Shown here one piece after another: positions 13,780-50,300 of a DNA stretch of 64,000 bases. Numbering within the stretch: the first letter of the stretch is position 1; each line of letters begins with the position of its first letter. This DNA is from a bacterium (GTDB lineage: Bacteria; Patescibacteriota; Minisyncoccia; Phycocordibacterales; CAIZLB01), in NCBI GenBank assembly GCA_043745355.1, contig JAYTSY010000011.1, forward strand, positions 16,822-80,821. Reading direction: 5' to 3'. A program made the translations under genes and the position numbers. Below the pieces are notes generated by a model. The model worked only from the letters and a program-made list of their open reading frames with translations. It searched no databases and was not told the origin of the DNA.

Positions 13780-13804
13780 GGGGTCTGACCCCCTTTGTGA
13801 TAAT
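13780..13804 (+). promoter_or_regulatory. GGGGTCTGACCCCC palindrome abutting an extended -10 (TGTGATAAT), 11 nt upstream of the rnr ATG
   Basis: Palindrome at 13780-13793; tgtGATAAT at 13796-13804; ATG at 13816. This implies a near-leaderless transcript. Confidence 0.35.
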
Positions 13805-13815
13805 ATATAAAAACA

Positions 13816-15792
13816 ATGAACGTCATAGGCACCATAAGCCTCAACTCAAAAGGAAAAGGATTCATCACTCTCCCCGATGCCGCAAAAGATGCGGAGGATA
13901 TTGTGGTTATGCCCGAGGATATCGGTCTGGCCCTTTCTGGTGACACGATAGAAGCGACCAGTTTCAATGGATATAAAGGCGCACTGCAAGGAAAAGTGGT
14001 TAGAGTAATAGAACGAAAGAAGATCAAATATGCAGGGACTGTGACAAAGGGTATCAAAAACCCTAATAATTTCTATATCGAGGCTGATGATCATCGGGCG
14101 AATGTGACGATATATCTAAAAAATGCATCGGATTTCAAAGACCTAAAAGAAGGCCAGAAAGTATTTGCTGAGATAAATGTTGCGACATGGACCGCGGCAG
14201 ACGGACGCATTGCACCTGGTACACTTCTCGAAATCATCGGAAACAAAGGTGACAACAATACTGAAATGCGAGCTATCGTACTGGAGAGAGGTTTTGATAC
14301 TGAATTTGCGCCAGAGGTACTTGCGGGAGCTGAAGAAGCCAGCAAAAAACTTTCAAATATAACTCCCGAAGAGATAAAAGAACGACGAGATTTCCGCAAT
14401 ACATTTACCTGCACGATTGATCCAATAGACGCAAAGGATTTTGATGATGCATTGTCGATGAAGGATCTCGAGGAGAAGGATGAGCAAGGGCGACCACTCG
14501 TTGAAGTGGGCATACACATCGCGGACGTCGCACACTTCGTTGTCGAAGGCACTCCACTTGATACTGAAGCGCGTAAACGTGCCCTCTCGGTCTATCTCGT
14601 CGATCGTACTATTCCGATGCTCCCCCACGTTCTCTCAAACGGAGTGTGTAGTTTGAATCCAAACGAAGATCGTTTTGCATTTTCTGCTGTATTTGTTATG
14701 GATCGGGATGCCAATATCCGCGAACGATGGTTTGGGCGAACACTCATACACTCAAACAAAAGATTCACTTATGAAAACGCGCAGGAAGTACTGACTGCGA
14801 GTGCTGACGCTGGCGCACCGACTGGTGAATTCGCCAATGAACTTCTCGAGTTTAATCGTCTTGCAAAAATAATGCTTAAGCGTCGCAAGGAAAAGGGCGC
14901 GATTGATTTCGAGACAACTGAAATCAAATTCAAACTGGATGAAGACGGCAAACCGATTGCAGTGTTCAAGAAAGCGCGTATCGACACACACCGACTTGTT
15001 GAAGAGTTCATGTTGCTTGCAAACAAAGAAGTAGCTGAATTTATTTTCAATAAAAACAAAACTGCCACTGTACACATGGCGGGAGTCTATCGCGTACACA
15101 ATCTTCCCGATCCTGAAAAATTGCATGATCTCGCGACGTTCGTAAACGCGCTCGGACTTGATTTTCACCCGACAAAAGACATTACCCCAAAAGATGTGCA
15201 ACATCTCCTCGACCAGGCTATCGGCAATGGCGCAGAGGCTGCCATAAAAGTAGCGACACTTCGATCAATGGCAAAGGCTATTTACTCTACAAAAAATGTC
15301 GGACACTTTGGCCTCGCTTTTGAATTCTATACACACTTCACCTCTCCTATTCGACGATATCCTGACCTCTCAGTTCATCGTATCCTCGCCGATGTACTCA
15401 AGGGTAAATCAGTGACAACTCAAATGATGGCGACCCTTGAAAAAATTTGTCAGAACTCATCGAAACGTGAAGTAGAGGCTGCGGACGCAGAACGCGCATC
15501 CGTCAAATATAAACAAGTTGAGTTCATGCAGGATCGTGTTGGCAAAACATTTGATGCGATTATCTCAGGCATCACAGATTGGGGAATGTATGTCGAAGAG
15601 CCTGAAGCAAAAGCAGAAGGACTCATCCGACTCCGCGACCTTCCGGGAGATTTCTACGCAGTGGATCACAAGAATTATAAAATTGTCGGACAGCAAACAA
15701 AGAGAGAGTTCTGTTTGGGACAGGCGGTCAAAGTGCGCCTTGATGCAGCAGATTTAGATAATAGGATGTTGTCGTTTACGTTGGTTGAGTAA
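13816..15792 (+). CDS. rnr: Ribonuclease R / RNase II family exoribonuclease
   Basis: RNB signature HFGLAFEFYTHFTSPIRRYPDLSVHRIL; C-terminal S1 domain. Confidence 0.85.
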   Translation: MNVIGTISLNSKGKGFITLPDAAKDAEDIVVMPEDIGLALSGDTIEATSFNGYKGALQGKVVRVIERKKIKYAGTVTKGIKNPNNFYIEADDHRANVTIYLKNASDFKDLKEGQKVFAEINVATWTAADGRIAPGTLLEIIGNKGDNNTEMRAIVLERGFDTEFAPEVLAGAEEASKKLSNITPEEIKERRDFRNTFTCTIDPIDAKDFDDALSMKDLEEKDEQGRPLVEVGIHIADVAHFVVEGTPLDTEARKRALSVYLVDRTIPMLPHVLSNGVCSLNPNEDRFAFSAVFVMDRDANIRERWFGRTLIHSNKRFTYENAQEVLTASADAGAPTGEFANELLEFNRLAKIMLKRRKEKGAIDFETTEIKFKLDEDGKPIAVFKKARIDTHRLVEEFMLLANKEVAEFIFNKNKTATVHMAGVYRVHNLPDPEKLHDLATFVNALGLDFHPTKDITPKDVQHLLDQAIGNGAEAAIKVATLRSMAKAIYSTKNVGHFGLAFEFYTHFTSPIRRYPDLSVHRILADVLKGKSVTTQMMATLEKICQNSSKREVEAADAERASVKYKQVEFMQDRVGKTFDAIISGITDWGMYVEEPEAKAEGLIRLRDLPGDFYAVDHKNYKIVGQQTKREFCLGQAVKVRLDAADLDNRMLSFTLVE

Positions 15793-15806
15793 TGGGGTCA
15801 GGCACC
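15793..15806. repeat. Half-copy of the palindromic element (GGGGTCAGGCACC) immediately after the rnr stop
   Basis: Shares 13 nt with the 20706 hairpin arm. Confidence 0.5.
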
Positions 15807-15910
15807 AGTTTTCAATTTGCTGACTATGATCCGCTTCAATCGCATCTAATTTGTCATTTAGCGCAGATGATATATTTAGGCATGTAAATTTATGCCATAA
15901 TAAGCTAAAT

Positions 15911-15956
15911 GATAAAAAGTTCGGGCCACGACTATCGGTAAGGATAATCGTGGCCT
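15911..15956 (-). terminator. Rho-independent terminator for the 16007-16345 gene
   Basis: ggccacga...tcgtggcc 8-bp stem followed by a T-run on the minus strand. Confidence 0.45.
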
Positions 15957-16006
15957 GAATGTGTGAACTTATTTAGTTTGAATCGTTGTTAGTGGCCAGG
16001 TTCAGG

Positions 16007-16345
16007 TCAAGGATGAAGAATTTCAATTCGACGAGGGTGTGTTCCCCGTCGTTTCAATGCACGTAGATCGGCTTCTGATGGATGCTCTCGCTTCCAAACA
16101 AATGTCGAGGGGCGCTGATCAGGAGGTAATTCACCGAAGCTTTTATCGATGAAGTCAATTTTACTCGGCGAGACAGTAACGCCGGCAAGTACTTCATCTT
16201 CGTACTCTGCTGCGATGTCCGCTTTCGTAATTTTGACCACAATGACAATTCCGTCAGTGGTTACAATCGTCACTTGAACTTCTTCATCCGAAACAAGACT
16301 GACCAGCCAAAGACCGATTAACTGGTCGAGGAGTGGTAGGCTCAT
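16007..16345 (-). CDS. Hypothetical protein downstream of smc
   Basis: ORF only; no recognisable motif. Confidence 0.35.
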   Translation of the reverse strand: MSLPLLDQLIGLWLVSLVSDEEVQVTIVTTDGIVIVVKITKADIAAEYEDEVLAGVTVSPSKIDFIDKSFGELPPDQRPSTFVWKREHPSEADLRALKRRGTHPRRIEILHP

Positions 16346-16407
16346 GGTTGGGTCTAGTTAGCAATGCTAGCACAACCCTAAATGTTGGCAAGAAGAAAGG
16401 TGAATAA

Positions 16408-18690
16408 CTATTTCGCCACCGTAACTGCATCATCAAACGCAATAGAAAGAAGTTTCGAATGACCTTCACCACCCATAGTCACTCCATATATAACGCCAGC
16501 TCGAGACATAGTCTCACGATTGTGTGTAATCAAAATAAGTTGAGAATGTTTTGAAAGGGCCTCGATCATGTCGCCGTATTTACGCGAGTTGGCTTCATCA
16601 AGCGCTGCGTCTGTTTCATCGAGAATAATAAATGGCGGAGGATTCACTTGTGACATGGCAAAAAGGAGCGCGATCGAAGTGAGCGCTCGTTCTCCACCGG
16701 AGAGCATCATCAGACCTTTGGTTCGTTTGTGTGGGAGTGCAACATAAATATCAATTCCCTCTTGTATCGGTTCGTCTTCGGTATTTTCTGAGGCACCTGC
16801 AAGTTCATCGCCGAGCTCATCTGATTTTCGGCGGCGGCGGCGCTCCTCCCGAACAATATCAAGGCGCGCCTCGCCGCCGCCGAACATCAATCGGAAAAAC
16901 TTATCAAACTCTGTGTTTATTTTCTTGATACCTTCCTTGAACATAACATCCAATTTCTCCGTCAGCTCTAAAATCATAGCGGTCAGTGCGTCACTCGAAA
17001 GCTTCAGGTCTTCTAACTCTCGTGCCAAAAAAGTATCACGTTCTTCTGCTTCTTTAAATTCTCGCATCACTTCATCCCCGCCTGCTCCGCCCATTTCCTC
17101 CAATCGAATCTTATTTTTTTCGATTGCACGACGCCTCTCCGTCTGTACTTCGCGAGGCTCCACTTCGATAGTATGCTTCACATCATCTGGCATTGTCGAA
17201 AGTTCGATCTTTTCATACGCAATTGCATCGCGATTTACGATCATCACTGCCTCCTCCATATCACGCTTCCAATCCTCATCCCCTAAACGCAATCGCTCCT
17301 CTCGGAATCGCAATTGTTCCATTGTATTATGCAATTCATTCTGACGAGACATGATCTTCAAAATCGCCTTCTCTGATTCAACATTTTTATCTTTCTCCTT
17401 ATCAATATCAGTTTTAATACGAGAATATTCATCCGCTTGTTTACTCTCAGCAGTCTGGACTGCCACAAGTTCTGATTCAAATCGCTTCATGTCCGAGCTT
17501 ACTCTCTCAATCTCGGCTTGCTCATTATTTATATCAACTGCGGCCTCAGTTGATTTGTGGTATTTCAAAAACTCTCCCCACATTGATTGCACCTGCGAGA
17601 GCGCAATTCGGAGCTGTGCCACGTCTTCAATCAAAAGGGCCGAGGCAACTTTACTATCAATCTCCCGACTCAATTTTTCAACTTCTGCGAGGTATATTTG
17701 CTTCTGGCTCGCCTCGGCCGCATCTCGTTGCTTTTTTTCGATCGCACGCTTCAAGTATGCGAGCTCACCTTCAAGGCGTCCGAGCTCACGAGTGAGCGAA
17801 TCTTTCTTGCCACGAGTTTCGCGAATCTGACTGTCGAGGGTAATCAAATCAGAACTTTTTGAATTCTCTTTCTGTGCCTCTGCGAGCAATGCTTTATGTT
17901 CACTCAATTCACGCTGCAATTTTTGCAATTCGTCACCTGGCGCGGTCTTGTCGCCAATGATGCGATCACGCTCGATCTTTATGTATGCCTCCTCACGGCG
18001 AAAATATTCTTGGTACAGTGCGATCAATTCTTGTTTCAAAGTCTGCGCCTTTTCAATTTTCTCCACCTGCTTTCTCAAAAATTTTATGTGCGGTGCGATT
18101 TCACGTCGAAGCGACTCGACTTCTTTCATATGTTCCGCTGTCTTTTGGAGCTTCTTTTCGCTCTCTTCTTTTTTATATTGAAATACTTTGAGGCCGAGAG
18201 CGTCTTCTATCATCTCGCGTCGCTCGAGTGGCTGAGCACTGAGCAATCGATCCGCTTCACCTTGTGAAATGATGTGGTGCCCTGATGAGCCGATATTTGC
18301 ATGTGCCAAAAGTTCAGCAACGTCCTTGAGTCGCACCTGCGTGCCGTTTATAAAATACTCATTGATACCGTCGCGATGCACCACTCGCTCGAGAGAGACT
18401 TCATCGAAGTCCACATTGAACATGCGGTTAACATTATCAAAAACTACTTTGACTGACGCACGATTAGACCGAGAAATATCTTTACCTCCATTAAAAATCA
18501 AATCCTCTCCCTTCTTGCCTCGCATCGATTTGATTGACTGCTCACCAAGCACAAATCGAAACGACTCCGCTACATTTGATTTTCCAGAGCCATTCGGGCC
18601 TACAATAGAAGTAATGGAGGAATTGAACTCCAAAGACCCTTTCTTAGCAAAAGATTTGAAGCCGTTTATTTCAAGAGACTTGAGTTGCAT
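16408..18690 (-). CDS. smc: SMC chromosome-segregation ATPase, short (760 aa) hinge-less form
   Basis: N-terminal Walker A MQLKSLEINGFKSFAKK...VGPNGSGKSN; C-terminal signature LSGGERALTSIALLFAM and Walker B FIILDETDAALD; long coiled coil; rnc-smc synteny. Confidence 0.8.
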   Translation of the reverse strand: MQLKSLEINGFKSFAKKGSLEFNSSITSIVGPNGSGKSNVAESFRFVLGEQSIKSMRGKKGEDLIFNGGKDISRSNRASVKVVFDNVNRMFNVDFDEVSLERVVHRDGINEYFINGTQVRLKDVAELLAHANIGSSGHHIISQGEADRLLSAQPLERREMIEDALGLKVFQYKKEESEKKLQKTAEHMKEVESLRREIAPHIKFLRKQVEKIEKAQTLKQELIALYQEYFRREEAYIKIERDRIIGDKTAPGDELQKLQRELSEHKALLAEAQKENSKSSDLITLDSQIRETRGKKDSLTRELGRLEGELAYLKRAIEKKQRDAAEASQKQIYLAEVEKLSREIDSKVASALLIEDVAQLRIALSQVQSMWGEFLKYHKSTEAAVDINNEQAEIERVSSDMKRFESELVAVQTAESKQADEYSRIKTDIDKEKDKNVESEKAILKIMSRQNELHNTMEQLRFREERLRLGDEDWKRDMEEAVMIVNRDAIAYEKIELSTMPDDVKHTIEVEPREVQTERRRAIEKNKIRLEEMGGAGGDEVMREFKEAEERDTFLARELEDLKLSSDALTAMILELTEKLDVMFKEGIKKINTEFDKFFRLMFGGGEARLDIVREERRRRRKSDELGDELAGASENTEDEPIQEGIDIYVALPHKRTKGLMMLSGGERALTSIALLFAMSQVNPPPFIILDETDAALDEANSRKYGDMIEALSKHSQLILITHNRETMSRAGVIYGVTMGGEGHSKLLSIAFDDAVTVAK

Positions 18691-19481: not shown

Positions 19482-20414
19482 CTATTTTTTGAGCAAAATG
19501 TTAATCGCCTTTGTGACAATCGGCAAAATATCGTTATAAAAATTGAGTGTCAAAATATCCTGCATCTTAAACCACTGTGCATCATCGAGTCCCCCTGAAG
19601 TGCCAAGTGTTAGTGGTCCGTATGATGCTTCAGCTAGGAAGTATTTAACTTGTTTGCGAATTTTTCCTTCTTCGGGGTGAGATGCGACATATTCATTGTT
19701 TGCCAACTCTTCTTGAACGGTGATGTCCACCCCCATTTCTTCCTTAATTTCACGCACTGTTCCCTGCTCTGCATTTTCGTCTCCTTCTAGTTTTCCTTTT
19801 GAAAGCGTCCAATGCCCAAACACATCATGCACCAACGCTAAATAAATTTGTTGACCATCCCGAGCGTAGACCACAGCCCCACCCAGAACCTTGATCGGCA
19901 TTTGATCGAAAGGCACGTCTTTTGGCTTTGTCTTTTTACGCGGTGACTGATCGTCTTTGCCTGGTTCGCCGAGCTCTTTATATACCGCACCGAGCACTCC
20001 GTTTACAAACTTACCAGATGTCTCACCTCCGAATGTTTTAGCGAGTTCGATTGCTTCGTTAATAGCAACTTTTGCAGGCACTTCTGATTTGTCAGCAAAG
20101 AGCAACTCGTAGAGACCAAGTCGGAGTACATTTCTATCAACAATTGAGATTTTTTTGATCGGCCATTCAGGTGCAGCCTTTTCAATAATATTATCGAGAT
20201 CAGTGCGCTTTTTGAGAATGCCGTCGGCTAGATTTTTAACAAAAGAAAAATCGCCCATACCAGGAGCGAACTCTTCAACATTTCTTTCCAACACCTTTGC
20301 GATCATAGAATCCTCGAGACTTCTAAAGTCCCACTCGAAGAGTGATTGCATAACTATTGATCGTGAAAGGTGCCTATTTGCCATTGTGGGGACTCGAACT
20401 GAGTACGGATTCAA
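19482..20414 (-). CDS. nusB: NusB antitermination factor fused to a C-terminal NUDIX hydrolase domain
   Basis: NusB-like residues 1-155 (LRLGLYELLF...INEAIELAKTFGGETSGKFVNGVL); Nudix box GKLEGDENAEQGTVREIKEEMGV in residues ~180-310. Confidence 0.8.
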   Translation of the reverse strand: MNPYSVRVPTMANRHLSRSIVMQSLFEWDFRSLEDSMIAKVLERNVEEFAPGMGDFSFVKNLADGILKKRTDLDNIIEKAAPEWPIKKISIVDRNVLRLGLYELLFADKSEVPAKVAINEAIELAKTFGGETSGKFVNGVLGAVYKELGEPGKDDQSPRKKTKPKDVPFDQMPIKVLGGAVVYARDGQQIYLALVHDVFGHWTLSKGKLEGDENAEQGTVREIKEEMGVDITVQEELANNEYVASHPEEGKIRKQVKYFLAEASYGPLTLGTSGGLDDAQWFKMQDILTLNFYNDILPIVTKAINILLKK

Positions 20415-20450: not shown

Positions 20451-20666
20451 TTACTTTGCAGATGTTTTCTTTGCAGCCTTTTTGTCTGCAATAGCCTTCT
20501 TGTCGATGATAGTCTTACCCTTGTATTTACCACACTGTGCACACATAACATGCTTTCGTTTTGGCATTCCGCAATCAGCACAAAGAACAGTACCGCTCGC
20601 AGCTAGTGCGTGGTGACTTCGTCGTGTACCCGTTTGGTTACGGGTATGTCGCATGTGGTTAACCAT
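20451..20666 (-). CDS. rpmF: 50S ribosomal protein L32
   Basis: RRSHHALAASGTVLCADCGMPKRKHVMCAQCGKYKGK is the L32 zinc-ribbon pattern. The ORF track's 136-aa upstream extension is non-coding (hairpins). Confidence 0.8.
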   Translation of the reverse strand: MVNHMRHTRNQTGTRRSHHALAASGTVLCADCGMPKRKHVMCAQCGKYKGKTIIDKKAIADKKAAKKTSAK

Positions 20667-20705
20667 AGTCCCAACAGTATATATATTTTGCCAAAAAAGG
20701 CAAAT

Positions 20706-20745
20706 GGGGTCAGGCACCGATTTGTCCGGATCGGTGCCTGACCCC
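20706..20745. repeat. Extended palindromic hairpin GGGGTCAGGCACCGAT-N8-ATCGGTGCCTGACCCC
   Basis: 16-bp perfect stem with an 8-nt loop; a T-run follows on the minus strand; sits between the YceD-like gene and rpmF. Confidence 0.6.
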
Positions 20746-20756
20746 AAATGTGAAAA

Positions 20757-20781
20757 GGGCGGCCGTCGCAGACGGCCGCCC
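20757..20781. terminator. GC-rich hairpin gggcggccgtc-gcag-acggccgccc
   Basis: 11-bp near-perfect stem immediately 3' of the 20797-21489 gene. Confidence 0.45.
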
Positions 20782-20796
20782 TGTAAACAACTCGAC

Positions 20797-21489
20797 TCAT
20801 TCCTCCAGCTGATCCAAGACCCCCTGAAAAGCAGGATCCGTTGACGCAACCCTGAGAGCAACCCTCAGTGCATGCACGCCTTTGGAGGATAGGCGTTGAA
20901 GCAACCTCTTGCTAATCACCACCTCAAGAGGTGTGTAGAAGATTTCATTGATTCGCTTATGAGTCCGGCGATGATTCAAACTTCCCACGTACCCTTTCAC
21001 AAGGACCACACGAGTATCATCCTCGTCGATGACTGACCGATCCACCAATTCAGCCAACGACATTACCGCCCCGAGCTGTGCATTTACTTTGGCCACAGCA
21101 TGTGTCTGGGCATTTACATCCTCGCTATCGTTGATTTGACTTGGGAAGTAAATTTTTGGCTCATCTTTGCCCATACCGTACGGGACAAACACCACCACAC
21201 TAAATTTTTCCTTCGTCTTCAACAGCCGACGACTGAGAATGACAAAGATGCGATTATGGAAAGGATGTTTCTCAACCACCGCTTCTTGCGAGACTTCATC
21301 CGCCACTTTCGAGACAGGTGCCGTAACCTTCCTGTGTCTCTTTTTGTAATAGCTACTTTCATGACGATGCTTCTCATGCGAAACATGAGGAGCACCTGGC
21401 TCGACCACTGGGTCTGAAGGGACAAGAACAGCTGTGCGTGTACGCGACATTGGAAATAATTCTAAACGCTCAACCAGAGCATGTGCCAT
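20797..21489 (-). CDS. Hypothetical protein (possibly YceD/DUF177-like by position upstream of rpmF)
   Basis: Conserved yceD-rpmF synteny only; no Cys motifs seen. Confidence 0.35.
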   Translation of the reverse strand: MAHALVERLELFPMSRTRTAVLVPSDPVVEPGAPHVSHEKHRHESSYYKKRHRKVTAPVSKVADEVSQEAVVEKHPFHNRIFVILSRRLLKTKEKFSVVVFVPYGMGKDEPKIYFPSQINDSEDVNAQTHAVAKVNAQLGAVMSLAELVDRSVIDEDDTRVVLVKGYVGSLNHRRTHKRINEIFYTPLEVVISKRLLQRLSSKGVHALRVALRVASTDPAFQGVLDQLEE

Positions 21490-21557: not shown

Positions 21558-22196
21558 TCACTTATCTTTTGGTGCAAGAACTTGGGGGTCTGACCCCAAA
21601 TACGTTTTTCGGTGAACTTCACTTATTCCATGTTTTTTTATTGCTTGCATATGCAATTGCGTGCCATATCCTTTGTGTCTTTCAAAACCATATTGTGGAT
21701 ATTTTCTTGCCATCCGAATCATCAATCGATCACGTTCAACTTTTGCATATATAGAAGCAAATGAAATGATTGGTTCCTTATCATCTCCACCAATAATCGT
21801 TTCTTGATGAATATACTCAGCAGGTACTTTCAAACTACCATCGAGGAGTATCAACACTTCTTCGGGTTTTACGTTCAACTTTTTTAAATTTTTTTGAATT
21901 AAACTTCTGATGCAAACGGCAATTCCTTTTTTATCTATTTCTTTTGCGGAGGCGTAACTTAACTGAAAAGTAATATTATCTTTCAAAACTTCATACCACA
22001 CTTCCCTTCCTTTTTCTGTTAAACGTTTTGAATCACGCAGTTTTGGCAAATCCTTAAATTTATTTACACTTTTTGACTTTAAACGGACATTATCAAATCT
22101 AACCATTGCAGCGCAAACTGCGACAGGACCAGCAACGGGACCACGGCCGACTTCGTCGATGCCGATGAGGTGTTTAAAAGTTTTATATTTTTTCAT
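21558..22196 (-). CDS. rnhB: Ribonuclease HII
   Basis: GIDEVGRGPVAGPVAVCAAMV and RDSKRLTEKGR motifs. The ATG overlaps the RT stop by 14 nt. The 3' end contains a GGGGGTCTGACCCC copy (21584-21597). Confidence 0.85.
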   Translation of the reverse strand: MKKYKTFKHLIGIDEVGRGPVAGPVAVCAAMVRFDNVRLKSKSVNKFKDLPKLRDSKRLTEKGREVWYEVLKDNITFQLSYASAKEIDKKGIAVCIRSLIQKNLKKLNVKPEEVLILLDGSLKVPAEYIHQETIIGGDDKEPIISFASIYAKVERDRLMIRMARKYPQYGFERHKGYGTQLHMQAIKKHGISEVHRKTYLGSDPQVLAPKDK

Positions 22197-23193
22197 TATT
22201 TATATTATAAATCAGATGGATCTTCTTTCTTATTCTATATGTATTTCCATGGCTGATTAAGCCAATGTAAGACTGAATGGTTTCCTTACTCTGGTTTACT
22301 TTAAGCCTTGAAAACATTCTTCTTTTGGTTGCAGTCCTCAATATCTTACAATGAGGAAAATGTACCCAGCCCAAGAAGTCTACTCCTGAAGCATAGGTTT
22401 TTATAAACACTTTATCAGGGTGTAACTCAAGTTTCAGTTTATTACTCAGGAACGCATCGATATTTAAAAGTATTAAATCAAGACTTTTTCTATCACTATC
22501 CATAAACACAAAATCATCGGCATAGCGTATATAAAACTTTGATTTAATGATGTGCTTGACGAACTGGTCAAATTCATTCATGTAGATGTTTACCAATAAT
22601 TGCGATGTGAGATTACCAAGCGGTAATCCTTTGCCATGTTCAGTAGTATGAAAGCTATCTATTATCTGCATAAGTAACCATGTGATATTTTTATCTGGTA
22701 TGTATTTACTTAATATTTCAATAAGAATTTTATGGTCAATTGAAGCAAAAAACTTCTTAATATCACACTTTAGGATCCATACTGTACATGTATTATTTTT
22801 ACTCACCTTGCGAGCATATATATCAAAACTTTTTATAGCCTCATGTGTCCCCTTACCTATTCTGCATGAATACGAATCGTAAATAAATCTCTTATCAAAA
22901 TAGGGGTACAATTTTCTATATAAAGCATGATGCAGTAACCTATCCCTCACCTTCGCTTTATGGATGTTTCTCGGCTTTGGGTCTGAAATATTAAATGCTT
23001 CGTAAACTGAATGTATATATGTTTTATCAGCCAAATCATTGTGAAGCGAGATTATGTTAGACATCAGATTCCTCTCAAATTCTTGAACATCTTTTCGGCT
23101 TTTCTTGCCCAAGACGAACCCATTCCATGCTTCAAGCAGGTTTTCTAAAGAGATGATATGCTCGTATGTACTATCAAATTTAGTGACTGACAT
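22183..23193 (-). CDS. Diversity-generating retroelement reverse transcriptase
   Basis: RT motifs WILKCDIKKFFASIDH, GLPLGNLTSQLL (DGR-specific GxxxSQ), YIRYADDFVFM and GVDFLGW; 336 aa with no maturase or endonuclease domain; adjacent TR/VR pair. Confidence 0.85.
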   Translation of the reverse strand: MSVTKFDSTYEHIISLENLLEAWNGFVLGKKSRKDVQEFERNLMSNIISLHNDLADKTYIHSVYEAFNISDPKPRNIHKAKVRDRLLHHALYRKLYPYFDKRFIYDSYSCRIGKGTHEAIKSFDIYARKVSKNNTCTVWILKCDIKKFFASIDHKILIEILSKYIPDKNITWLLMQIIDSFHTTEHGKGLPLGNLTSQLLVNIYMNEFDQFVKHIIKSKFYIRYADDFVFMDSDRKSLDLILLNIDAFLSNKLKLELHPDKVFIKTYASGVDFLGWVHFPHCKILRTATKRRMFSRLKVNQSKETIQSYIGLISHGNTYRIRKKIHLIYNINNEKI

Positions 23194-23206
23194 ATCATGA
23201 AATCTA

Positions 23207-23216
23207 CCCCCCCCCC
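23207..23216. repeat. C10 homopolymer (G10 on minus strand) in the 31-bp gap between the RT and avd start codons
   Basis: cccccccccc at 23207-23216; RT ATG at 23193 (minus strand), avd TTG at 23225 (plus strand). Confidence 0.9.
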
Positions 23217-23224
23217 GAGAATTT

Positions 23225-23593
23225 TTGCAACAACCTAAACTACTCCCTCTATTACAGAAAGTAAAAACTGTATATATCTTGTGGTACGGCTATTATCAGA
23301 CACTGCCGAAGCTACACAGACACTCACTTGGACAACGAATTGACTCCCTTTTTATAGAAACAATGGAAGCAATCAGTGTGGCGAGTTTTTTACAAAAAGA
23401 AGAAAAATTGCCGTGGGTAAAAGTGGCCATACGAAAGATTGACACTGTAAAACTATTACTTATGGTACTTTGGGAGACTAAATCACTCGATGAAAAGAAA
23501 TACATCTTGCTATCTCTTCAACTAGAAGAGATCGGGAAAATGCTTGGTGGTTGGAATGGTCAGATTTCAAAACAAAACTCCCCCGCCATATAG
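23225..23593 (+). CDS. avd: Avd-like accessory variability determinant (four-helix-bundle / 23S rRNA IVS protein family)
   Basis: C-terminal LQLEEIGKMLGGW resembles the family's EIGKMLNGL motif; helix-rich 122 aa; TTG start; opposite strand to the RT and target. Confidence 0.6.
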   Translation: MQQPKLLPLLQKVKTVYILWYGYYQTLPKLHRHSLGQRIDSLFIETMEAISVASFLQKEEKLPWVKVAIRKIDTVKLLLMVLWETKSLDEKKYILLSLQLEEIGKMLGGWNGQISKQNSPAI

Positions 23594-23614
23594 GCAGAGG
23601 AGAGATGAAGAGAT

Positions 23615-23743
23615 TTGCGACGGAAGATCCAGAGGTTGTCAGGATTCCACTGATTGTCGGGGTTGGCATAATTGGCGTTGAGCCACATGCCATTCGAGTC
23701 GTGTTCGAGGTTGAACACGTTTGGATTACGGTCGGAGTCGATT
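23615..23743 (-). repeat. DGR template repeat (TR), 129 bp
   Basis: Aligns with 24121-24249 with 20 mismatches, all at plus-strand T (template A). Translation of the TR is Asn-rich (NPNVFNLEHDSNGMWLNANYANPDNQWNPDNLW). Confidence 0.85.
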
Positions 23744-23980
23744 GTGCATTGTCCCATCTTTTCCACCACCACTTGATTACTCTCGTGGTTGTATTTTATT
23801 CGTGATCTATAATCACAGAGGACTATGCACCAAGTATCTTCATTTTTTGAAGTGTCTACATACACCACTCTACCCTAAACCTTGGTCGAGAATATTCTGG
23901 ATGTATGGATACTGGATTCGGTAGGAAGAAACCGTGATCTCTCCCGTATTCACCTACTACCGTTTTTAACTTTATCATAA

Positions 23981-24014
23981 ATACAAAAATCCCGAACACG
24001 TATTGTGTTCGGGG
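23981..24014 (-). terminator. Hairpin cccgaacac-gtatt-gtgttcggg plus T-run downstream of the DGR target gene and VR
   Basis: 9-bp stem followed by a T-run on the minus strand. Confidence 0.5.
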
Positions 24015-24104
24015 GCAGGTTTAGAGATGTACCTTGCTTTAACTTACTTTTGGCGCCGAAGGGCAAAGTTCAAAGGGTCAGAGTAGACCACAGTGGACAA
24101 GTCC

Positions 24105-24788
24105 TTAGGGCTTAGTGATCTTGCGACGGAAGATCCAGAGGCGGTCAGGATCCCACTGAAGGCCGGGGTAGGCACAATTGGCGCGGAGCCACATGCCAAG
24201 CGAGTCGTGTCCGAGGCGGAACACGTCCGGATCACGGTCGGAGTCGATGATTGGCTTCATGCCGACACGAATCCATTCGTCCAAAGGTTGGTCGTTGTAG
24301 GCGAGCCTCAGGTAGAATGCGTCGCTCGGTTTGCACAGCTCAAGCCCATGCTGTGCCAAGAACTCTTCGTTGAGGAAGACTTGTGTCTCCGTGTTCTCAT
24401 CTAACCCGAACAGATCGTGGAGGCTTCCCTTCACGAACTCCACCCCCTCTTCTTTCTCGGTCGGGAACGTGCATTCGGGCTTGCCTGCGATGTCGAGGGC
24501 CCAGTCGCTGGCTTTCATGCCCGTCTTTGTTCCGTCTTTGACCTTGTAGGTCGCCTCCTTGAACTTGGAGAGAAGCTGTTCTTTGGTGTCTCCACCGACG
24601 ATCAGCATCATCCAGAGCTTGAGGGCGGCCTCCTTGATCAATTGAATGAGGGTTTGAGGTTGCATCCGAAGTGCGAGCTTGACTGCTTCCAGCCAGCTTG
24701 CACCGTTTTTGCCCGACAGTTTGTCGAGCAGGACTTTCATCGGTCCAGCCACATCGGCAAGAGCGATATCCGAGCATATATTACTCAT
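24105..24788 (-). CDS. DGR target protein with C-terminal variable region
   Basis: 227 aa; C-terminus IIDSDRDPDVFRLGHDSLGMWLRANCAYPGLQWDPDRLWIFRRK is the VR-encoded counterpart of the TR; the VR ends 16 nt before the stop. Confidence 0.8.
   Translation of the reverse strand: MSNICSDIALADVAGPMKVLLDKLSGKNGASWLEAVKLALRMQPQTLIQLIKEAALKLWMMLIVGGDTKEQLLSKFKEATYKVKDGTKTGMKASDWALDIAGKPECTFPTEKEEGVEFVKGSLHDLFGLDENTETQVFLNEEFLAQHGLELCKPSDAFYLRLAYNDQPLDEWIRVGMKPIIDSDRDPDVFRLGHDSLGMWLRANCAYPGLQWDPDRLWIFRRKITKP
24121..24249 (-). repeat. DGR variable repeat (VR) at the 3' end of the target gene
   Basis: See TR; the changes are adenine-specific. Confidence 0.85.
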
Positions 24789-28210: not shown

Positions 28211-28471
28211 TTATCGATACACATCATGACTCCCAATTTTCAATAAGTATATTTCTCCTTCTCTGCCAAATTCAAACACAACTCTAACACTCATATCTAC
28301 TGAGAATGAATAAAATTTAGATAACTGACCATGTAACTTATGCACATTGAGGGAAGGGTGCTTCTGATTATCTTTAAACAAATTAACCTTCTTTAATGCG
28401 AGCGTCTGCATTTTTTCTGGCAACTTCTCAAATTGTGATACAAACTTTTCTGTAAAAAATATATTAACCAT
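28211..28471 (-). CDS. RelE/ParE-family toxin
   Basis: 86 aa; VRVVFEFGREGEIYLLKIGSHD; 8-nt overlap with the upstream RHH gene. Confidence 0.65.
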   Translation of the reverse strand: MVNIFFTEKFVSQFEKLPEKMQTLALKKVNLFKDNQKHPSLNVHKLHGQLSKFYSFSVDMSVRVVFEFGREGEIYLLKIGSHDVYR

Positions 28472-28694
28472 TCTTCTTACGGTTTTTAAGAATTGAAGCT
28501 AATTCACCACGATATACTCTCCCTTGCTCAACCTGTCGTGAAGCTTCGAATATTTCATTGATTTCCATCTCTTCTTGCATCAAGCGAATAGCACTGCGAA
28601 CAGCTTGCGCGCGATTCTCAGCTACGCCCGTTTTAATAAGCGAATCAACGAAATCTAAAAGGATTTTTGGCAATGGAATTGATATGGTAGTCAT
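28464..28694 (-). CDS. Ribbon-helix-helix (CopG/ParD-like) antitoxin
   Basis: 76 aa; RHH-like N-terminus ISIPLPKILLDFVDSLIKTGVAENRAQAVRSAIR. Confidence 0.6.
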   Translation of the reverse strand: MTTISIPLPKILLDFVDSLIKTGVAENRAQAVRSAIRLMQEEMEINEIFEASRQVEQGRVYRGELASILKNRKKNG

Positions 28695-34260: not shown

Positions 34261-34267
34261 ATAATAT

Positions 34268-34301
34268 AAAAAAACAGCCCGCGTAAGCGGGCTGTTTTTT
34301 T
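34268..34301. terminator. Bidirectional terminator cagcccgc-gtaa-gcgggctg with A/T runs; core similar to the 30612 terminator
   Basis: aaaaaaacagcccgcgtaagcgggctgttttttt. Confidence 0.6.
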
Positions 34302-34310
34302 ATATTATAA

Positions 34311-34322
34311 GGGTTTGACCCC
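34311..34322. repeat. Degenerate copy of the palindromic element (GGGTTTGACCCC) just 3' of the gyrB stop
   Basis: Matches the GACCCC half exactly. Confidence 0.4.
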
Positions 34323-34324: not shown

Positions 34325-36430
34325 TTAAATATCGATGTTTGCGAGTTTTGCGTTGGTTTGAATGAACGTCTTTCGAGAAGGAACATCATTGCCCATCAGT
34401 ACTTCGATAATTTTGTCTGCCTCAGTTGCATCATCAACAGTTACCCGTTTCAATATACGTCGATTGATATCCATAGTTGTCTCGCCGAGCTCCTCGGCAT
34501 TCATCTCTCCGAGACCTTTGTATCGCTGAATGTGGACTTTAGGAGTACTCTTTACTTTACCCTTTGCATCTCCTTCATCTGTTCCCTCCTCTCCCTCCGC
34601 TGCCTCATCTTGAGTCTCGTTGTCAGTATCAGCAGTCTCTAGCTCCTCAGCCTTGATTCCCTCTTTCTTCAAGAATGAGTTTTTCTCATCGTCATTATAG
34701 AAATACATCACCTCTTTTCCTTTCTTCACTTTGTATAGTGGCGGTTGCGCAATATAAATAAATCCTCCATCGATAAGTGGTCTGAAATATCGATAGCAAA
34801 GTGTCAAAATGAGTGTACGAATGTGTGCACCGTCCACATCGGCATCTGTCGCGATAATGATTTTGTGGTATCGGAGTTTTGTAATATCAAATGTGTCGCC
34901 AATCGCAGTACCGAGCGCAACGACAAAGTTGCGGATCTGTTCTGAAGCGAGCATCTTGTCGAGTCGTGCTCGTTCAATGTTCAAGATCTTACCTCGAAGT
35001 GGAAGCACAGCTTGGGTGCGTCGATCTCGTCCCATTTTGGCGGTACCACCCGCAGAGTCTCCCTCCACAATGAAGAGTTCTGATTCCTCAGCACGACGAC
35101 TCGAGCAGTCGGCAAGCTTACCTGGGAGTGTCATACCTTCGAGTGCACCCTTTCGCAACACCGAGTCCTTGGCAGCCTTTGCGGCCTTGCGAGCTCGCAT
35201 AGCGAGAAGTCCCTTGTTAATGATAGCCTTGGCGTCATCGGGATTTTCTTCGAGAAATGCACTAAACGCTTCGCCGAAAACTGTTCCTGTTGCGCCTTGT
35301 GCCTCAGTCGATCCGAGTTTTGCTTTTGTCTGACCTTCGAACTGAATCTCGGGCATCTTGATGGAAACCACCGCAACGAGGCCTTCTTGTACATCATCTC
35401 CGGTCAAAGAATCGTTATCACCATCCTTGATGATATTATTTTTCTTTGCGTATGAATTGATGATGCGAGTGAGTGCAGTTTTGAATCCAGAAATATGAGT
35501 ACCTCCCTCAGAGTTAAAAGTGTTGTTCGCAAACGCAACGATCTTTACGTTGATATCATCAATGTATTGCAATGCTACTTCCACAGCGACATTACCCTGT
35601 TCTTTTTCTATATAGAAAATATTTTTGTGAAGCGGCTTCTGTGATTGATTGTAAAAAGCAACGAGCGATCGAAGACCTCCTTCGAAATAGAAGTTCATGG
35701 ACGGCATGTCTATCATTTCGTCCTTGAGGAAAAAAGTATCCTCAAGGACACGATCTATAATTTTTGCCTCAACACCACGTACATCGAGCACGTTGATTTC
35801 CAACCCCTTAACGAGATATGCTTGCTGTCGCAAATGATTCATGACCTTGCTCCAATCGTAAATAACACCTTCCTTGAAAATCTCGGCATCTGCCTTGAAC
35901 ATTACGATTGAACCACTCAGTTTTGTTTTGCCAGTCTGCTTTACTTTTGCAACCGGTTTACCGATCTTGTATTCCTGCATATAAATACCGCCGTCTTTAT
36001 GCACAGTAACTTTTGTGTGAACAGAGAGCGCGTTCACCACCGATGCGCCCACTCCATGAAGTCCTCCTGAAACCTTGTACCCCTCACCACCGAATTTTCC
36101 TCCCGCGTGAAGTGTGGTCATGATAGTTTCGAGGGCCGAAACTTTTGTCTTGGAGTGCATATCAACTGGAATACCTCGTCCATTGTCTACGACGCGAATG
36201 TATCCATCTGGGAGGAGTGCAACTTCAATACGGTTACAGTGGCCACCCATAGCTTCGTCACGAGAGTTATCAAAGATCTCAGTAATGAGATGGTGGAGAC
36301 CATCGGGTCCTGTCGTACCGATGTACATACCAGGACGTTTTCGAACAGGCTCGAGACCTTCGAGGACAGTGATCTCTTCGGCTCCATAATGAGGAACCTT
36401 AGGCTTTTTTTCGTCTTTTTCCTTTGCCAT
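34325..36430 (-). CDS. gyrB: DNA gyrase subunit B
   Basis: GHKL ATPase (HHLITEIFDNSRDEAMGG...VVDNGRGIP); Toprim EGDSAGG; acidic insert near the C-terminus. Confidence 0.95.
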   Translation of the reverse strand: MAKEKDEKKPKVPHYGAEEITVLEGLEPVRKRPGMYIGTTGPDGLHHLITEIFDNSRDEAMGGHCNRIEVALLPDGYIRVVDNGRGIPVDMHSKTKVSALETIMTTLHAGGKFGGEGYKVSGGLHGVGASVVNALSVHTKVTVHKDGGIYMQEYKIGKPVAKVKQTGKTKLSGSIVMFKADAEIFKEGVIYDWSKVMNHLRQQAYLVKGLEINVLDVRGVEAKIIDRVLEDTFFLKDEMIDMPSMNFYFEGGLRSLVAFYNQSQKPLHKNIFYIEKEQGNVAVEVALQYIDDINVKIVAFANNTFNSEGGTHISGFKTALTRIINSYAKKNNIIKDGDNDSLTGDDVQEGLVAVVSIKMPEIQFEGQTKAKLGSTEAQGATGTVFGEAFSAFLEENPDDAKAIINKGLLAMRARKAAKAAKDSVLRKGALEGMTLPGKLADCSSRRAEESELFIVEGDSAGGTAKMGRDRRTQAVLPLRGKILNIERARLDKMLASEQIRNFVVALGTAIGDTFDITKLRYHKIIIATDADVDGAHIRTLILTLCYRYFRPLIDGGFIYIAQPPLYKVKKGKEVMYFYNDDEKNSFLKKEGIKAEELETADTDNETQDEAAEGEEGTDEGDAKGKVKSTPKVHIQRYKGLGEMNAEELGETTMDINRRILKRVTVDDATEADKIIEVLMGNDVPSRKTFIQTNAKLANIDI

Positions 36431-44960: not shown

Positions 44961-44971
44961 GCATTGCTATA

Positions 44972-45340: not shown

Positions 45341-45354
45341 AAATGTTATGTGAT

Positions 45355-45951: not shown

Positions 45952-46013
45952 AAATATAGGGGTTAGAAACTAAGTATACCGCGAAATAACAGCGGTTAAT
46001 AGGGGGCAATTAG

Positions 46014-46769: not shown

Positions 46770-46814
46770 AGGTAAATGAGAGTTTAGCATAGAGGATGAC
46801 AGTGTGCAAATCAA

Positions 46815-46862
46815 AAACCCGCAGCATATGTCTGGTGCTGCGGGGGGTGTCTTTTGGCCAAC
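46815..46862 (-). terminator. Terminator hairpin cccgcagca...tgctgcggg plus T-run after the TrpF-like gene
   Basis: 9-bp stem with a T-run on the minus strand. Confidence 0.45.
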
Positions 46863-47732: not shown

Positions 47733-47777
47733 AGAGTCTAGATCAACAGTACAACAAAAGGAGAATTTGTCTACAAG

Positions 47778-48662
47778 TTAACGATTTTTCTTCTTCTGAA
47801 CTTTTAAAAAATTCTGTTTTGTAACGATCGAGCGTTTTAGGCGCTTCTCAAGCGATTTTCTTGCGCCGCCTGCAATATTTCCTCCAGCTTTCGCATCTGC
47901 CTTTAATTTTGGAATACCTTTTGAATTCTCATTCCGATGAATTTCGGTGGTTGACCTCTCTCCGAGCATTGTAAAAATAAGTTCAAAATCATCCATGTGA
48001 TCTCGGAGGTTTTGTTGCTCTAGACCCTTTAGATTTTTGTATTCTTGCGGAGTAACACCAAAAGTGGCTTTGGATATTTCTGAAGTCAGTATCTCATAAT
48101 CCTTGTTTTCCTTAGCTCCTCGGTTTTTCCATTCATCAGTTAATTCTTCTCGGATTGCAATGCCACGCATCCGCTTTTCGATCCAATCATCATTGTACCC
48201 TTTGAGTTTATAGAGCATCCGAGTACGTTTTGTAGCCAGCTCAGGATTCTCGATCTCTTGTACTCGTTCAAAACCTACTTTTGCGAGCCATCTCTTAAAT
48301 GGCTCAGCTTTTGGCGAGGGTATCGATTGAATAATACGGAAGATGCCTTCAATGTCAGCACAATCAGTTTCGTAGAATTTACCATCTTCTGCTGCTAGTT
48401 TCAGTTGTACCCAAAATGGGGACAACTGGTTCAGTTGTCCGATTTTTGCGGACAACTCATTATTACTCTCTTCCAATAGTTTTACTTTAAGGTCGCTCCA
48501 ATATTTTCTTGGTCTGTCACTACCTGTAAGCGCTTCCACTACATCCACCACCGAAAACCACCACTCTCCATTGTGAAGCACCCTTCGAATCTTCTGGTTT
48601 TTGAATATTGCGATTTGGGTTGAATCCATATTATAATTATATTCCTTTTTATTTTGTTGCAA
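47778..48662 (-). CDS. Bro-N domain protein (DinD / phage antirepressor / RhuM-like)
   Basis: IRRVLHNGEWWFSVVDVVEALTGSDRPRKYW is Bro-N-like; C-terminal part is RhuM-like. Confidence 0.55.
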   Translation of the reverse strand: MQQNKKEYNYNMDSTQIAIFKNQKIRRVLHNGEWWFSVVDVVEALTGSDRPRKYWSDLKVKLLEESNNELSAKIGQLNQLSPFWVQLKLAAEDGKFYETDCADIEGIFRIIQSIPSPKAEPFKRWLAKVGFERVQEIENPELATKRTRMLYKLKGYNDDWIEKRMRGIAIREELTDEWKNRGAKENKDYEILTSEISKATFGVTPQEYKNLKGLEQQNLRDHMDDFELIFTMLGERSTTEIHRNENSKGIPKLKADAKAGGNIAGGARKSLEKRLKRSIVTKQNFLKVQKKKNR

Positions 48663-48720
48663 TCTAGATATAAATTGTAAATATGTTGTTGTCAGAATAT
48701 TCAGAATTATTTCTGAATAT

Positions 48721-48927
48721 TTACTGATTTTCCTTAATAAAATCTTCCATTGAAGTCTTATTCACCAGTTCGGGGTTTATCTTCATCTCTACTCCTGAAT
48801 TAGCAATATGATCATAAATAAACTCGGCAGTAACATGATAATTGCCCTCAATAAGCTTATTGAGCAACGCGGCAAGCTCCCTCTTGCAGTGTTTTAGTTT
48901 AGTATTTGTTACGTTTTTTGTATCCAT
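48721..48927 (-). CDS. Hypothetical small protein
   Basis: ORF only. Confidence 0.3.
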   Translation of the reverse strand: MDTKNVTNTKLKHCKRELAALLNKLIEGNYHVTAEFIYDHIANSGVEMKINPELVNKTSMEDFIKENQ

Positions 48928-48936
48928 ACATTTAAA

Positions 48937-49926
48937 TTATTCATCCTCCGACGAGTTTTCCTCCCCCTCCACAACCACTCCGTTTGCCCTATCTTGTAAT
49001 GCACTAAAGATAGGTCCGATATTCCCGAGGAATATCCCTTCGATGTTGTGCCATGATTGCTTGAGGCGATGATCAGTGACACGATCCTGGAGGACGTTGT
49101 AGGTCCGGATTTTCTCGGACCGATCCCCTGTTCCAATTTGGTCTTTACGGTTTTGCGCGAATTTCTTTGCCTCTTCTTCTTCCTTAAGCAGTGCCAATTT
49201 AGCGGTTAAAATTGACATGGCCTTTTCCCGGTTCTTGAGCTGGCTCCGCTCTGATGTCGATCGTACATCGATACCTGTCGGCTTGTGAATGAGTCGCACA
49301 GCAGTTTCTACCTTGTTTACATTCTGTCCTCCAGCACCACCAGAACGAGAAAATTCCATTTCTATGTCTGCTGGGTTTATTTCAAAATTCAATTTTTTAC
49401 GAATGGGAAGGACCGCTACTGACGCAGTGGATGTGTGAATACGACCTGATTTCTCGGTCGCTGGCACACGTTGTACACGATGCACCCCAGTCTCATATCT
49501 AAAGTATTTATAAATCTCGGGTCCTCGTAATTCATATGAGGCTTCTTTAAATCCCCCAATCGCCGTCTCAGACGAGTCGACAAGTCGTGCTGACCAGTTC
49601 TGAGTCACCGCATATTTCTGATACATGTCCGCTAGTTGCGATGCAAATAACGCCGCTTCATCACCTCCCGCACCTGCCCGCACTTCGAGAATAATTTCTG
49701 AAGGATATTCGTCGGCAACTTCATCAGCTTTCATTATTTCCTTTAATTTTTCTTCAACTCCTCTGATTTGTTCGTTGAGGGTCAGAAGTTCCTCTTTTGC
49801 CATTTCAGCCATATTCGGGTCCTCAGCCATAGCATCAACCTCTTTTTTCTGACCCAAAAGCTTCTCGTATTCATACGCGTAATAGCTGGTCTTGTGATTT
49901 TGTTTTAATTCATCGAGATTTTCCAT
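48937..49926 (-). CDS. prfA: Peptide chain release factor 1
   Basis: GGQ motif [11 protein letters not shown]; RF1-type PAT tripeptide in RVQRVPATE. Confidence 0.85.
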
Positions 49927-50000
49927 GTGTATTTAGGCTCTATTATTGTAGCAAAAGAAAAAGCCACATGTATTAAATGGTGGCTTTTTCTTTAACCTAG

Positions 50001-50222
50001 CTACTTCTTCTTTGTAACTTTTGTGCTCGCTGCTCGTGCCTTGAACTTTTCTACTCGTCCAGCTGTGTCGAGGATCTTTTCGTTACCAGTATAGAATGGG
50101 TGACAATTTGAACAGATTTCAATTGCAATCTTTTCCTTTGTAGAACCCATGACATAGACCGCCCCACAAGCGCAGGTAACGGTTGCTTTGTCGAAGTATT
50201 TTGGGTGGATTACTGCTTTCAT
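50001..50222 (-). CDS. rpmE: 50S ribosomal protein L31 (zinc-ribbon type)
   Basis: [10 protein letters not shown]...CACG...[10 protein letters not shown]. Confidence 0.9.
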
Positions 50223-50261
50223 AGTTCAAGTAATATAGCACAGGGGCAAAAAAAGACAAAT

Positions 50262-50300
50262 AGGGTCAGACCCCTCCGACAAGAAAGGGGGTCTGACCCC
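50262..50300. repeat. Two inverted copies of GGGTC(A/T)GACCCC forming a 12-bp-stem hairpin with a 13-nt loop
   Basis: agggtcagacccc-tccgacaagaaag-ggggtctgacccc between the MltB-like gene and rpmE. Confidence 0.6.

Follow-up and report, generated by a model that had tools for sequence, protein, structure and literature searches.

A palindromic repeat with the core GGGGTCAG at gene boundaries of a Patescibacteria genome and its probable relationship to the repeats of TIRYT transposases

The contig JAYTSY010000011.1 (NCBI GenBank assembly GCA_043745355.1) is from a bacterium of the Patescibacteriota. A stretch of 64,000 nt from this contig (positions 16,822–80,821, forward strand), termed here the window, was analyzed for a short palindrome, GGGGTCWGACCCC, which recurs next to rnr, rpmF, gyrB and rpmE and within rnhB. 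All coordinates are those of the window. The proteins encoded in the window are reduced and divergent, e.g. an RNase R that lacks the N-terminal part, a NusB–Nudix fusion and a 760-aa SMC (the latter two, at positions 19482–20414 and 16408–18690, are also found in relatives). By RNase R identity the nearest genome relatives are Patescibacteria of the Paceibacteria type (57%–59%), and the closest database relatives show 75%–79%. Genomes of the candidate phyla radiation are small and tightly packed and repeats are rare in them; a proliferating hairpin family is therefore unexpected in such a genome.

Repeat units in the window

Most gene starts in the window (e.g. 20666, 50222, 13816, 36430 and 32998) have a −10-like box 6–9 nt before the ATG, often with a TG upstream of the box, and no Shine-Dalgarno sequence is visible. 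Relatives also have this closely set −10 box and no Shine-Dalgarno sequence. Because of this arrangement the mRNAs of the window are suggested to be mostly leaderless or nearly so, and the rpmF mRNA is predicted to be of this type from its promoter–ATG distance. All but one of the palindromic units are found in the short gaps between such genes, and Table 1 shows their locations.

There are three exact matches to GGGGTCWGACCCC in the window, compared with none in 100 dinucleotide-preserving shuffles. When up to two mismatches are allowed there are eight units at six loci, whereas in the shuffles the mean is 0.46 and the highest count is 4. The motif also ranks first in 12-mer over-representation in the window. 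A previous reading of this DNA, made without database searches (termed the sequence-only reading), had proposed a recurrent palindrome beyond chance at these places. This is confirmed by the counts; the coordinates it gave are correct to within one base, and the genes it named (those of RNase R, L32, RNase HII and GyrB) are the right ones.

Six of the eight units contain GGGGTCAG or its complement, and the two degenerate units read AGGGTCAG and GGGGTCAA. A variant with two changes, GGGGTCAGGCACC, is common to positions 15794 and 20706, and its complement is present at 20733; thus the solitary 13-mer past rnr is identical to the left arm of the hairpin upstream of rpmF. This recurrence of an identical variant at separate loci indicates that the units arose by copying rather than by independent selection.

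The units are not distributed at random. Non-coding sequence makes up 6.7% of the window, but five of the six motif loci are wholly non-coding (P ~8e-6), an intergenic enrichment that the sequence-only reading had put forward as a check. With 93% of the window coding, seven of the eight units are non-coding. Every unit is at a gene boundary, with a density of about one unit per 8 kb, and three units are 1–4 nt past a stop codon (those of rnr, gyrB and an SLT-like gene). The single coding unit is in the last codons of rnhB and encodes GSDP, as had been noted from the sequence; the tail of the protein reads ...YLGSDPQVLAPKDK*. This one copy is all that favors an origin by chance or by coding bias, e.g. 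by way of a frequent GSDP peptide, and such an origin is contradicted both by the absence of exact matches in the shuffles, against three observed, and by the non-coding position of the other seven units. The repeat is a real family at gene boundaries, and chance and coding bias are excluded as its source.

The units are organized as two doublets, with 13–14 nt between the inverted units, and four singlets. The rpmF doublet had been described as an extended hairpin with a 16-bp stem; the extended stem is present, and its arms are 17 nt long and 100% complementary. It folds at −40.4 kcal/mol (z = −8.1) and is the best-ranked terminator-like match. The rpmE doublet folds at −31.7 kcal/mol (z = −5.0) and terminates 2 nt before the rpmE −35 box, inside a T-rich tract. 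After each doublet comes a T run that passes into the following −35 box. The minimal single unit had been considered unable to fold, but it can form a 4–5 bp stem with a 3–5 nt loop. With −9 to −11 kcal/mol and a z of about −1.4 this is a weak fold, no stronger than that of shuffled sequence.

With respect to promoters, the motif center is 43–47 nt upstream of the predicted start at four minus-strand promoters, and at rnr the motif overlaps the −35 position. None of the eight units has a GTAG, GTGG or CGTC tag beside it, i.e. the GT[AG]G guide tetranucleotide was not found. Other terminators of the window are built on different, unrelated stems (GGGCGGCCGTC, CAGCCCGC and GGCCACG).

Table 1. 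Locations of the palindromic units, of the promoters next to them and of other elements in the window
Feature	Position	Strand	Context
Single exact unit GGGGTCTGACCCC	13780–13792	.	Right edge of a ~310-nt block missing in relatives, between the rpsP and rnr promoters
Promoter-like site, TTGACT-N17-TATATT	TTGACT 13776–13771; TATATT 13753–13748	minus	Brackets the 13780 unit
rnr extended −10, TGATAATAT	13798–13806		9 nt to ATG 13816; brackets the 13780 unit on the other side
Solitary variant arm GGGGTCAGGCACC	15794–15806	plus	1 nt past the rnr stop (TAA 15790–15792)
Doublet TGGGGTCAGGCACCGAT-N8-ATCGGTGCCTGACCCCA, perfect 17-bp stem	20705–20746	minus	Followed by TTTGCCTTTTTT on the minus strand; units GGGGTCAGGCACC (20706–20718) and GGTGCCTGACCCC (20733–20745)
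rpmF promoter, TTGCCT-N16-TATACT	20676–20703	minus	9 nt to ATG 20666; neighbor of the repeat, not part of it
Single exact unit in rnhB	21585–21597	.	Last 13 codons; stop 21558–21560; encodes GSDP of the new tail
Degenerate single unit AGGGTTTGACCCC	34310–34322	.	2 nt past the gyrB stop (34325–34327, minus); adjoins a bidirectional terminator (34261–34308)
Doublet GGGGTCAGACCCC-N13-GGGGTCTGACCCT (minus-strand sequence)	50262–50300	minus	4 nt past the stop of the SLT-like gene (50305–50307); variant unit AGGGTCAGACCCC (50262–50274) and exact unit (50288–50300)
rpmE promoter, TTGTCT-N16-TATATT, TG upstream	50232–50259	minus	9 nt to ATG 50222; neighbor of the repeat
Perfect 31-bp inverted repeat	13460–13534		Extra block of the rpsP–rnr spacer
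72-nt tRNA-like domain	13535–13606	minus	Matches the tmRNA model at both of its ends; 23.9 bits, under the gathering score; G3:U70 pair
Terminator-like hairpin	13691–13720		rpsP–rnr spacer
Reverse transcriptase open reading frame	22183–23193	minus	Part of the retroelement
bAvd-like open reading frame	23225–23593	plus	Just under the Pfam cut-off
128-nt repeat pair, 86% identical	23615–23742 and 24121–24248		Second copy at the C-terminus of the open reading frame 24105–24788 (minus)

Related genomes and the family in viral and metagenome contigs

Syntenic relatives were compared around rnr (loci L082, L084, L086 and L088; the prefix L denotes loci of the comparison set) and around prfA (L227, L228 and L230), about 117 kb in total. 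The identity of their proteins to those of the window is 75%–79% for RNase R and 83%–85% for PrfA. A search in related genomes had been recommended in the sequence-only reading; across these ~117 kb no copy of the motif was found with up to two mismatches. A set of 80 genome loci from Patescibacteria and Bacteroidota had no match to the exact motif either.

Two promoters show the relationship of the doublets to older sequence. Upstream of rpmF, L082, L084 and L086 have a terminator followed by a promoter (TGTATACT, 9 nt, ATG) with a conserved −10 and start region; in L084 the promoter is TTGCCA-N16-TATACT. The window has the same terminator (20749–20789) and promoter, and in addition a 42-nt hairpin between them, 3 nt from this ancestral terminator, which is absent from the three relatives. 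At rpmE the promoter is kept in L227, L228 and L230 (TTGCCT or TTGCGT ... TGATATATT ... ACTATG) and the doublet is absent, whereas the window has the same promoter with a 39-nt doublet placed between the stop codon of the SLT-like gene and the −35 box.

In rnhB the protein end itself is altered. The RNase HII of relatives displays a conserved sequence up to HRKTFLK and then a short tail (KSLL, KNISH or KNISAKINAL); in the window the motif starts a new tail, GSDPQVLAPKDK, in place of the ancestral one. The spacer after rnr is 122 nt in the window versus 31 nt in L086, and the L086 spacer is without the motif. As relatives keep the rpmF and rpmE promoters without the motif, and as the rnhB tail has been rewritten, the sequence comparison identifies the copies as lineage-specific gains, with the adjacent promoters older than the copies. 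The simplest explanation of the 43–47 nt spacing is that the gap from the stop codon or terminator to the next −35 box is the sole place where an insertion is tolerated.

The rpsP–rnr spacer (13414–13815), which contains the unit at 13780, is also longer than in relatives, ~400 nt versus ~100 nt. Its other elements are listed in Table 1. A 13-nt segment at ~13728 is complementary to the loop of the tRNA-like domain, and ARAGORN called nothing in this spacer.

The paired form of the motif was searched for with the pattern GGGGTCWGRCMCC-N5–30-GGKGYCWGACCC. Nine viral-contig stretches match it, and six matched control palindromes gave 0, 0, 0, 0, 1 and 7 viral stretches. The control with seven is GGGGACWGTCCCC, a sister palindrome found in viral contigs L098–L104 as pairs and tandem arrays (in L103 an array of four copies with a 36-nt period); it also fits the consensus GGGGWSAS that is discussed below. 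With an AT prefix, the paired pattern matches at least 120 metagenome stretches that range from 27% to 73% G+C. These carry ordinary chromosomal genes, such as thrA, ileS, ftsH, an RND pump and an ADOP permease of the Acidobacteria type. Across 129 loci 282 exact units were counted, with three or more in 32 of the loci.

The pairs show which part of the repeat is conserved. The center letters of the two units are A...T in 75 pairs, T...A in 13, A...A in 25 and T...T in 23. The outer eight bases are fixed (GGGGTCAG...CTGACCCC), and the inner five vary (ACCCC, GCACC, GCCCC, ACACC). Where a pair has a variant arm, the partner arm compensates for it in 12 cases and does not in 8; where both arms are variant in the inner half, compensation is present in 9 of 9 pairs, including 7 of 7 with the two-base change GGCACC/GGTGCC. 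The rpmF hairpin is likewise compensated between its arms. Bases that flank the units also pair and covary. Because of the A...T center preference, the inner compensation and the flank covariation, the conserved object is, on the sequence data, a hairpin whose base is sequence-specific (GGGGTCAG/CTGACCCC), and not two independent duplex sites.

No dominant neighbor family was found when open reading frames within 2 kb of the motif were clustered in the 129 loci. A full-text literature search for the 13-mer and an 11-mer yielded only unrelated primers and viral sequences, and a BLAST search with a 48-nt consensus doublet against plasmids and phages gave no match. Rfam, at gathering and at permissive thresholds, gave only generic hairpin matches (miRNA and plastid 3′UTR models).

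A different usage of the 13-mer is seen in a metagenome contig of 41% G+C (L121, OBWY01000002.1, positions 5526–12141), and also in L138 and L153. Here a CTCTCGGGGTCAGACCCCATGAAGA-like sequence is present in seven copies of the same orientation. In five of the seven an ATG follows the motif directly, and these ATGs appear to start successive genes that lie beside a fucokinase gene; in the other two the triplet is ATA. This is unlike the doublets.

Probable relationship to TIRYT transposases and weighing of alternatives

TIRYTs are RAYT-like tyrosine transposase genes that are flanked by inverted repeats with the consensus GGGGWSAS; the inverted repeats form repeated families and are also found as dimers and clusters (Di Nocera et al. 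2013, BMC Genomics 14:522, PMC3733652). In the TIRYT 1152 family of Stenotrophomonas maltophilia the terminal inverted repeats (TIRs) are self-complementary and closely paired (PMC3733652). TIRYTs have been equated with TnpA_REP subclass 2.1, or RAYT group 1, with the consensus given as GGGG[AT][CG]A[CG] (Quentin et al. 2018, PMC6006769). The outer end of the repeat described here matches this consensus: GGGGTCAG and the sister core GGGGACAG both fit it.

A RAYT/TIRYT profile was made from the sequences in Additional file 5 of PMC3733652 and was used to scan all open reading frames of 231 loci and the window (2.4 Mb). It gave five matches: L175, L189, L133, L219 and L009. L175 and its near-duplicate L189 have a Y1 gene with GGGGTCAGACCCC doublets on both sides, and L133 has a doublet 23 nt upstream of its Y1 gene. 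In L219 the Y1 gene is flanked by a related repeat, AAATGGGGACATTCCTCATTT, which begins with GGGGACAT. Pfam Y1_Tnp (PF01797) is confirmed for L175/L189, L133 and L219 (E-values between 1e-12 and 1e-15). Of the published proteins, the S. maltophilia TIRYT 1152 (sml_1152), whose own repeats are close, self-complementary pairs, is nearest to those of L175 and L133, with 44%–46% identity. The identical 13-mer is present beside both of these Y1 genes. This link surfaced only with the dedicated profile and not with neighbor clustering; a first Y1 screen, with an IS200 seed and a regular expression, had produced false leads only.

The fifth match, L009, is from a metagenome-assembled genome of Candidatus Nomurabacteria (CALRBJ010000002.1). 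It has a Y1-like open reading frame on the minus strand (20636–21370), and a hairpin, TCCCCTAGGGCGGACCTAGGGGA, is found on both sides of it with a third copy inside the gene (20609–21365). The hairpin is unrelated to the window motif, and the Y1_Tnp match is weak (21.4 bits, below the cut-off). The L009 locus looks like a REPtron, and it shows that systems of a Y1 gene with flanking hairpins do occur in the candidate phyla radiation.

The motif is best interpreted as the core of short, non-autonomous hairpin repeats of the type of repetitive extragenic palindromes (REPs) and of REPINs, specifically the TIR repeats that accompany TIRYTs, which are Y1/HUH transposases of the IS200 family. A probability of about two in three is given to this interpretation. 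It agrees with the suggestion of the sequence-only reading that the family could be REP-like or like miniature inverted-repeat transposable elements, for which the lineage-specific copies, the shared sub-variants, the occurrence of singlets together with inverted doublets, and the same core beside TIRYT genes all speak. The motif is then a known kind of repeat in an unusual host, not a new regulatory code.

The replicating unit is likely to be the inverted doublet, GGGGTCAG...CTGACCCC, which would fold into a hairpin on single-stranded DNA. Singlets would be half-copies or remnants, and are probably inert. Copies would have been inserted where they are tolerated, i.e. just past a stop codon, in the stretch that separates a terminator from the following −35 box, or among the last codons of a gene. 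A Y1 transposase located elsewhere in the genome, or formerly present, would have spread the copies by recognition of single-strand hairpins; by analogy with IS200/IS605 and with TnpA_REP of E. coli it would act on these hairpins during replication. The sequence-only reading had argued for recognition by a protein, which is probably right, however the likely partner would be a hairpin-binding transposase of the HUH type acting on single strands and not a dimeric repressor on duplex DNA.

The similarity to known systems is greatest for TIRYT loci (TIRtrons), with which the motif has in common a repeated family with dimers and, as in the S. maltophilia 1152 family, self-complementary units in close pairs. 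There are differences. The host here has a streamlined Patescibacteria genome with no cognate transposase gene seen within 64 kb, the units are very short (13–21 nt), and the family is nearly unchanged over 27%–73% G+C and in viral contigs. This conservation of the core across phyla is not reported in the two TIRYT studies (PMC3733652, PMC6006769). The classical REP/REPIN-RAYT systems of E. coli and Pseudomonas share with the motif short extragenic palindromes, present as singlets and as hairpin-forming inverted doublets, that adjoin or overlap the 3′ ends of open reading frames (here three units directly past stops and one within the last 13 codons), and a presumed movement by a single-copy Y1/HUH transposase on single-stranded hairpins. 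They differ in having GT[AG]G at the foot of the hairpin, in their unit length (usually 20–40 nt, longer than here) and in families that are lineage-specific in sequence, whereas the core of the motif recurs across phyla. With the subterminal hairpins of IS200/IS605 and their miniature derivatives there is the similarity of a Y1 transposase that recognizes a hairpin and of movement via single-stranded DNA; those hairpins, however, bound a discrete element that has a left end, a right end and a target tetranucleotide, while the motif repeats are without cargo, defined ends or target. Stoperators of mycobacteriophages are asymmetric multi-copy sites whose orientation matters and whose repressor is known. 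Like the motif, they are 13-bp sites scattered in short intergenic gaps near gene ends, but the arms of the motif are mutually complementary and are linked to a transposase.

Several points weigh against the TIRYT interpretation. Neither the 64-kb window nor the 3.2 kb that precede it contain a Y1 transposase open reading frame, and this extension at the left end also has no motif copy. Of the 129 loci that were selected by the motif, just three independent contigs carry a transposase, and the exact 13-mer adjoins the Y1 gene in only two (L175/L189 and L133). The units lack the GT[AG]G guide tetranucleotide that is canonical for classical REPs. All four well-conserved sites have the 43–47 nt spacing to a predicted start, a geometry that would also suit an activator. 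The AT prefix required in the metagenome search biases the flank statistics. The relatives are 15%–25% diverged in protein, and "insertion" means a gain by whatever route, no pair of empty and filled sites having been seen. We know of no experimental demonstration that TIRYTs mobilize their TIR repeats. In addition, the survey of subclass 2.1 found, by its own criteria, no REP-like sequences near those genes (PMC6006769).

A site for a dimeric regulator, either an operator or an activator site, would account for a perfect palindrome with an odd center that is located at or just upstream of the −35 box, where it could define a small regulon (rnr, rpmF, rpmE and a yceD-like gene); the common distance to four starts and the overlap with the rnr −35 position fit this. 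The rpmF and rpmE promoters, however, are conserved in three relatives each with no palindrome there. Three units directly follow stop codons, two of them without a promoter behind, and one is in a coding tail. In the rpmF hairpin the two arms match perfectly as complements, but neither arm is a palindrome by itself, and the same two-change variant is found at an unrelated locus. A co-occurring DNA-binding regulator, which the sequence-only reading had advised looking for, was not found linked to the motif in the window, and no neighbor gene is recurrent in the 129 other loci. The operator that this reading had listed among its options is thus unlikely. Sites of CtsR, NtrC or sigma-54 and Tn3 inverted-repeat tips were rejected on sequence, as were a SECIS element, a look-alike of 5S rRNA helix IV, restriction sites and an integron attC.

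Ordinary intrinsic terminators, or hairpins that stabilize 3′ ends, could have evolved in place and be alike because G4/C4 stems are favored. The strong folds of the doublets, the T runs after them and the copies immediately past stop codons are what this would predict. Yet other terminators of the window do not share the stem, single units fold like shuffles, and at rpmF an ancestral terminator was already 3 nt away. Five of six control palindromes gave 0–1 paired viral matches versus nine for the motif; an outer 8-mer that is fixed over 27%–73% G+C is unexpected from structure alone, and the linkage to a transposase is left unexplained. An origin in place is accordingly improbable for the family. 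For a DNA uptake signal read by the competence machinery it can be said that these bacteria are thought to rely on that machinery for nucleotides, that known uptake sequences are often inverted pairs in terminators, and that the window has a type IV pilin-like gene (N_methyl motif). Known uptake sequences, however, are found roughly once per kb and also inside genes, as compared with one unit per ~8 kb at gene boundaries only, and the motif is wholly absent from close relatives while the 13-mer itself turns up in viruses and in phyla that are unrelated; this explanation is far-fetched.

Termination may still be a secondary property of the two doublets. By sequence they have the form of an intrinsic terminator, i.e. 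a stable G+C-rich hairpin past a gene with a T run directly behind it, and the four singlets do not. The two doublets probably also act as terminators, as predicted from these features, so that the processing or termination signal proposed in the sequence-only reading is plausible for them and only for them. With their T runs they would now serve as intrinsic terminators and shield the leaderless promoters of rpmF and rpmE, halting read-through so that the next leaderless mRNA starts at its AUG. Classical REPs can serve as terminators or as mRNA stabilizers.

Other elements in the window and significance of the repeat

Relative to syntenic relatives, a diversity-generating retroelement is inserted between rnhB and dnaE (22183–24788). 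The differences between its two repeats, as seen by eye, are at T of the plus strand, i.e. A of the coding strand, as expected for adenine mutagenesis. A link between the motif and this neighboring element, with its target-recognition sequence and hairpin, was considered and rejected, the motif not being at the ends of the variable region or of the template repeat. The window also has two small toxin–antitoxin-like pairs, at 10823–11463 and 28211–28694: a Gp49/HigB-like open reading frame with an Xre-type HTH open reading frame, and a RelE/HigB-like open reading frame with a small partner. At 59877–60320 a 21-nt tandem repeat of eight copies is within a coiled-coil open reading frame.

To our knowledge, RAYT group 1 (TIRYT) transposases are generally regarded as unlinked to REPIN-like populations. 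The present findings are sequence-level evidence that ties these poorly studied transposases to repeat populations built on a 13-nt core, which is conserved across very different genomes. A more far-reaching proposal, which is tentative and perhaps doubtful, is that TIRYTs sustain a miniature hairpin replicator that is close to universal, with GGGGTCAG...CTGACCCC as its core and GGGGACAG...CTGTCCCC as the sister core. It would cross phyla, being present in soil bacteria that resemble Acidobacteria, in viral contigs and in a member of the candidate phyla radiation. In this streamlined genome with leaderless mRNAs its copies would have been co-opted as terminate-and-restart insulators, set exactly in the gap from a stop codon to the −35 box that follows.

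There are also practical consequences. Such hairpins break assemblies, as in the Logan contig L001, which stops inside another hairpin in the rpsP–rnr spacer, and they are liable to be misannotated as operators or terminators. If the doublets do terminate transcription, they would be an example of a selfish repeat that has been reused to separate transcription units in a genome where mRNAs must start at the AUG.

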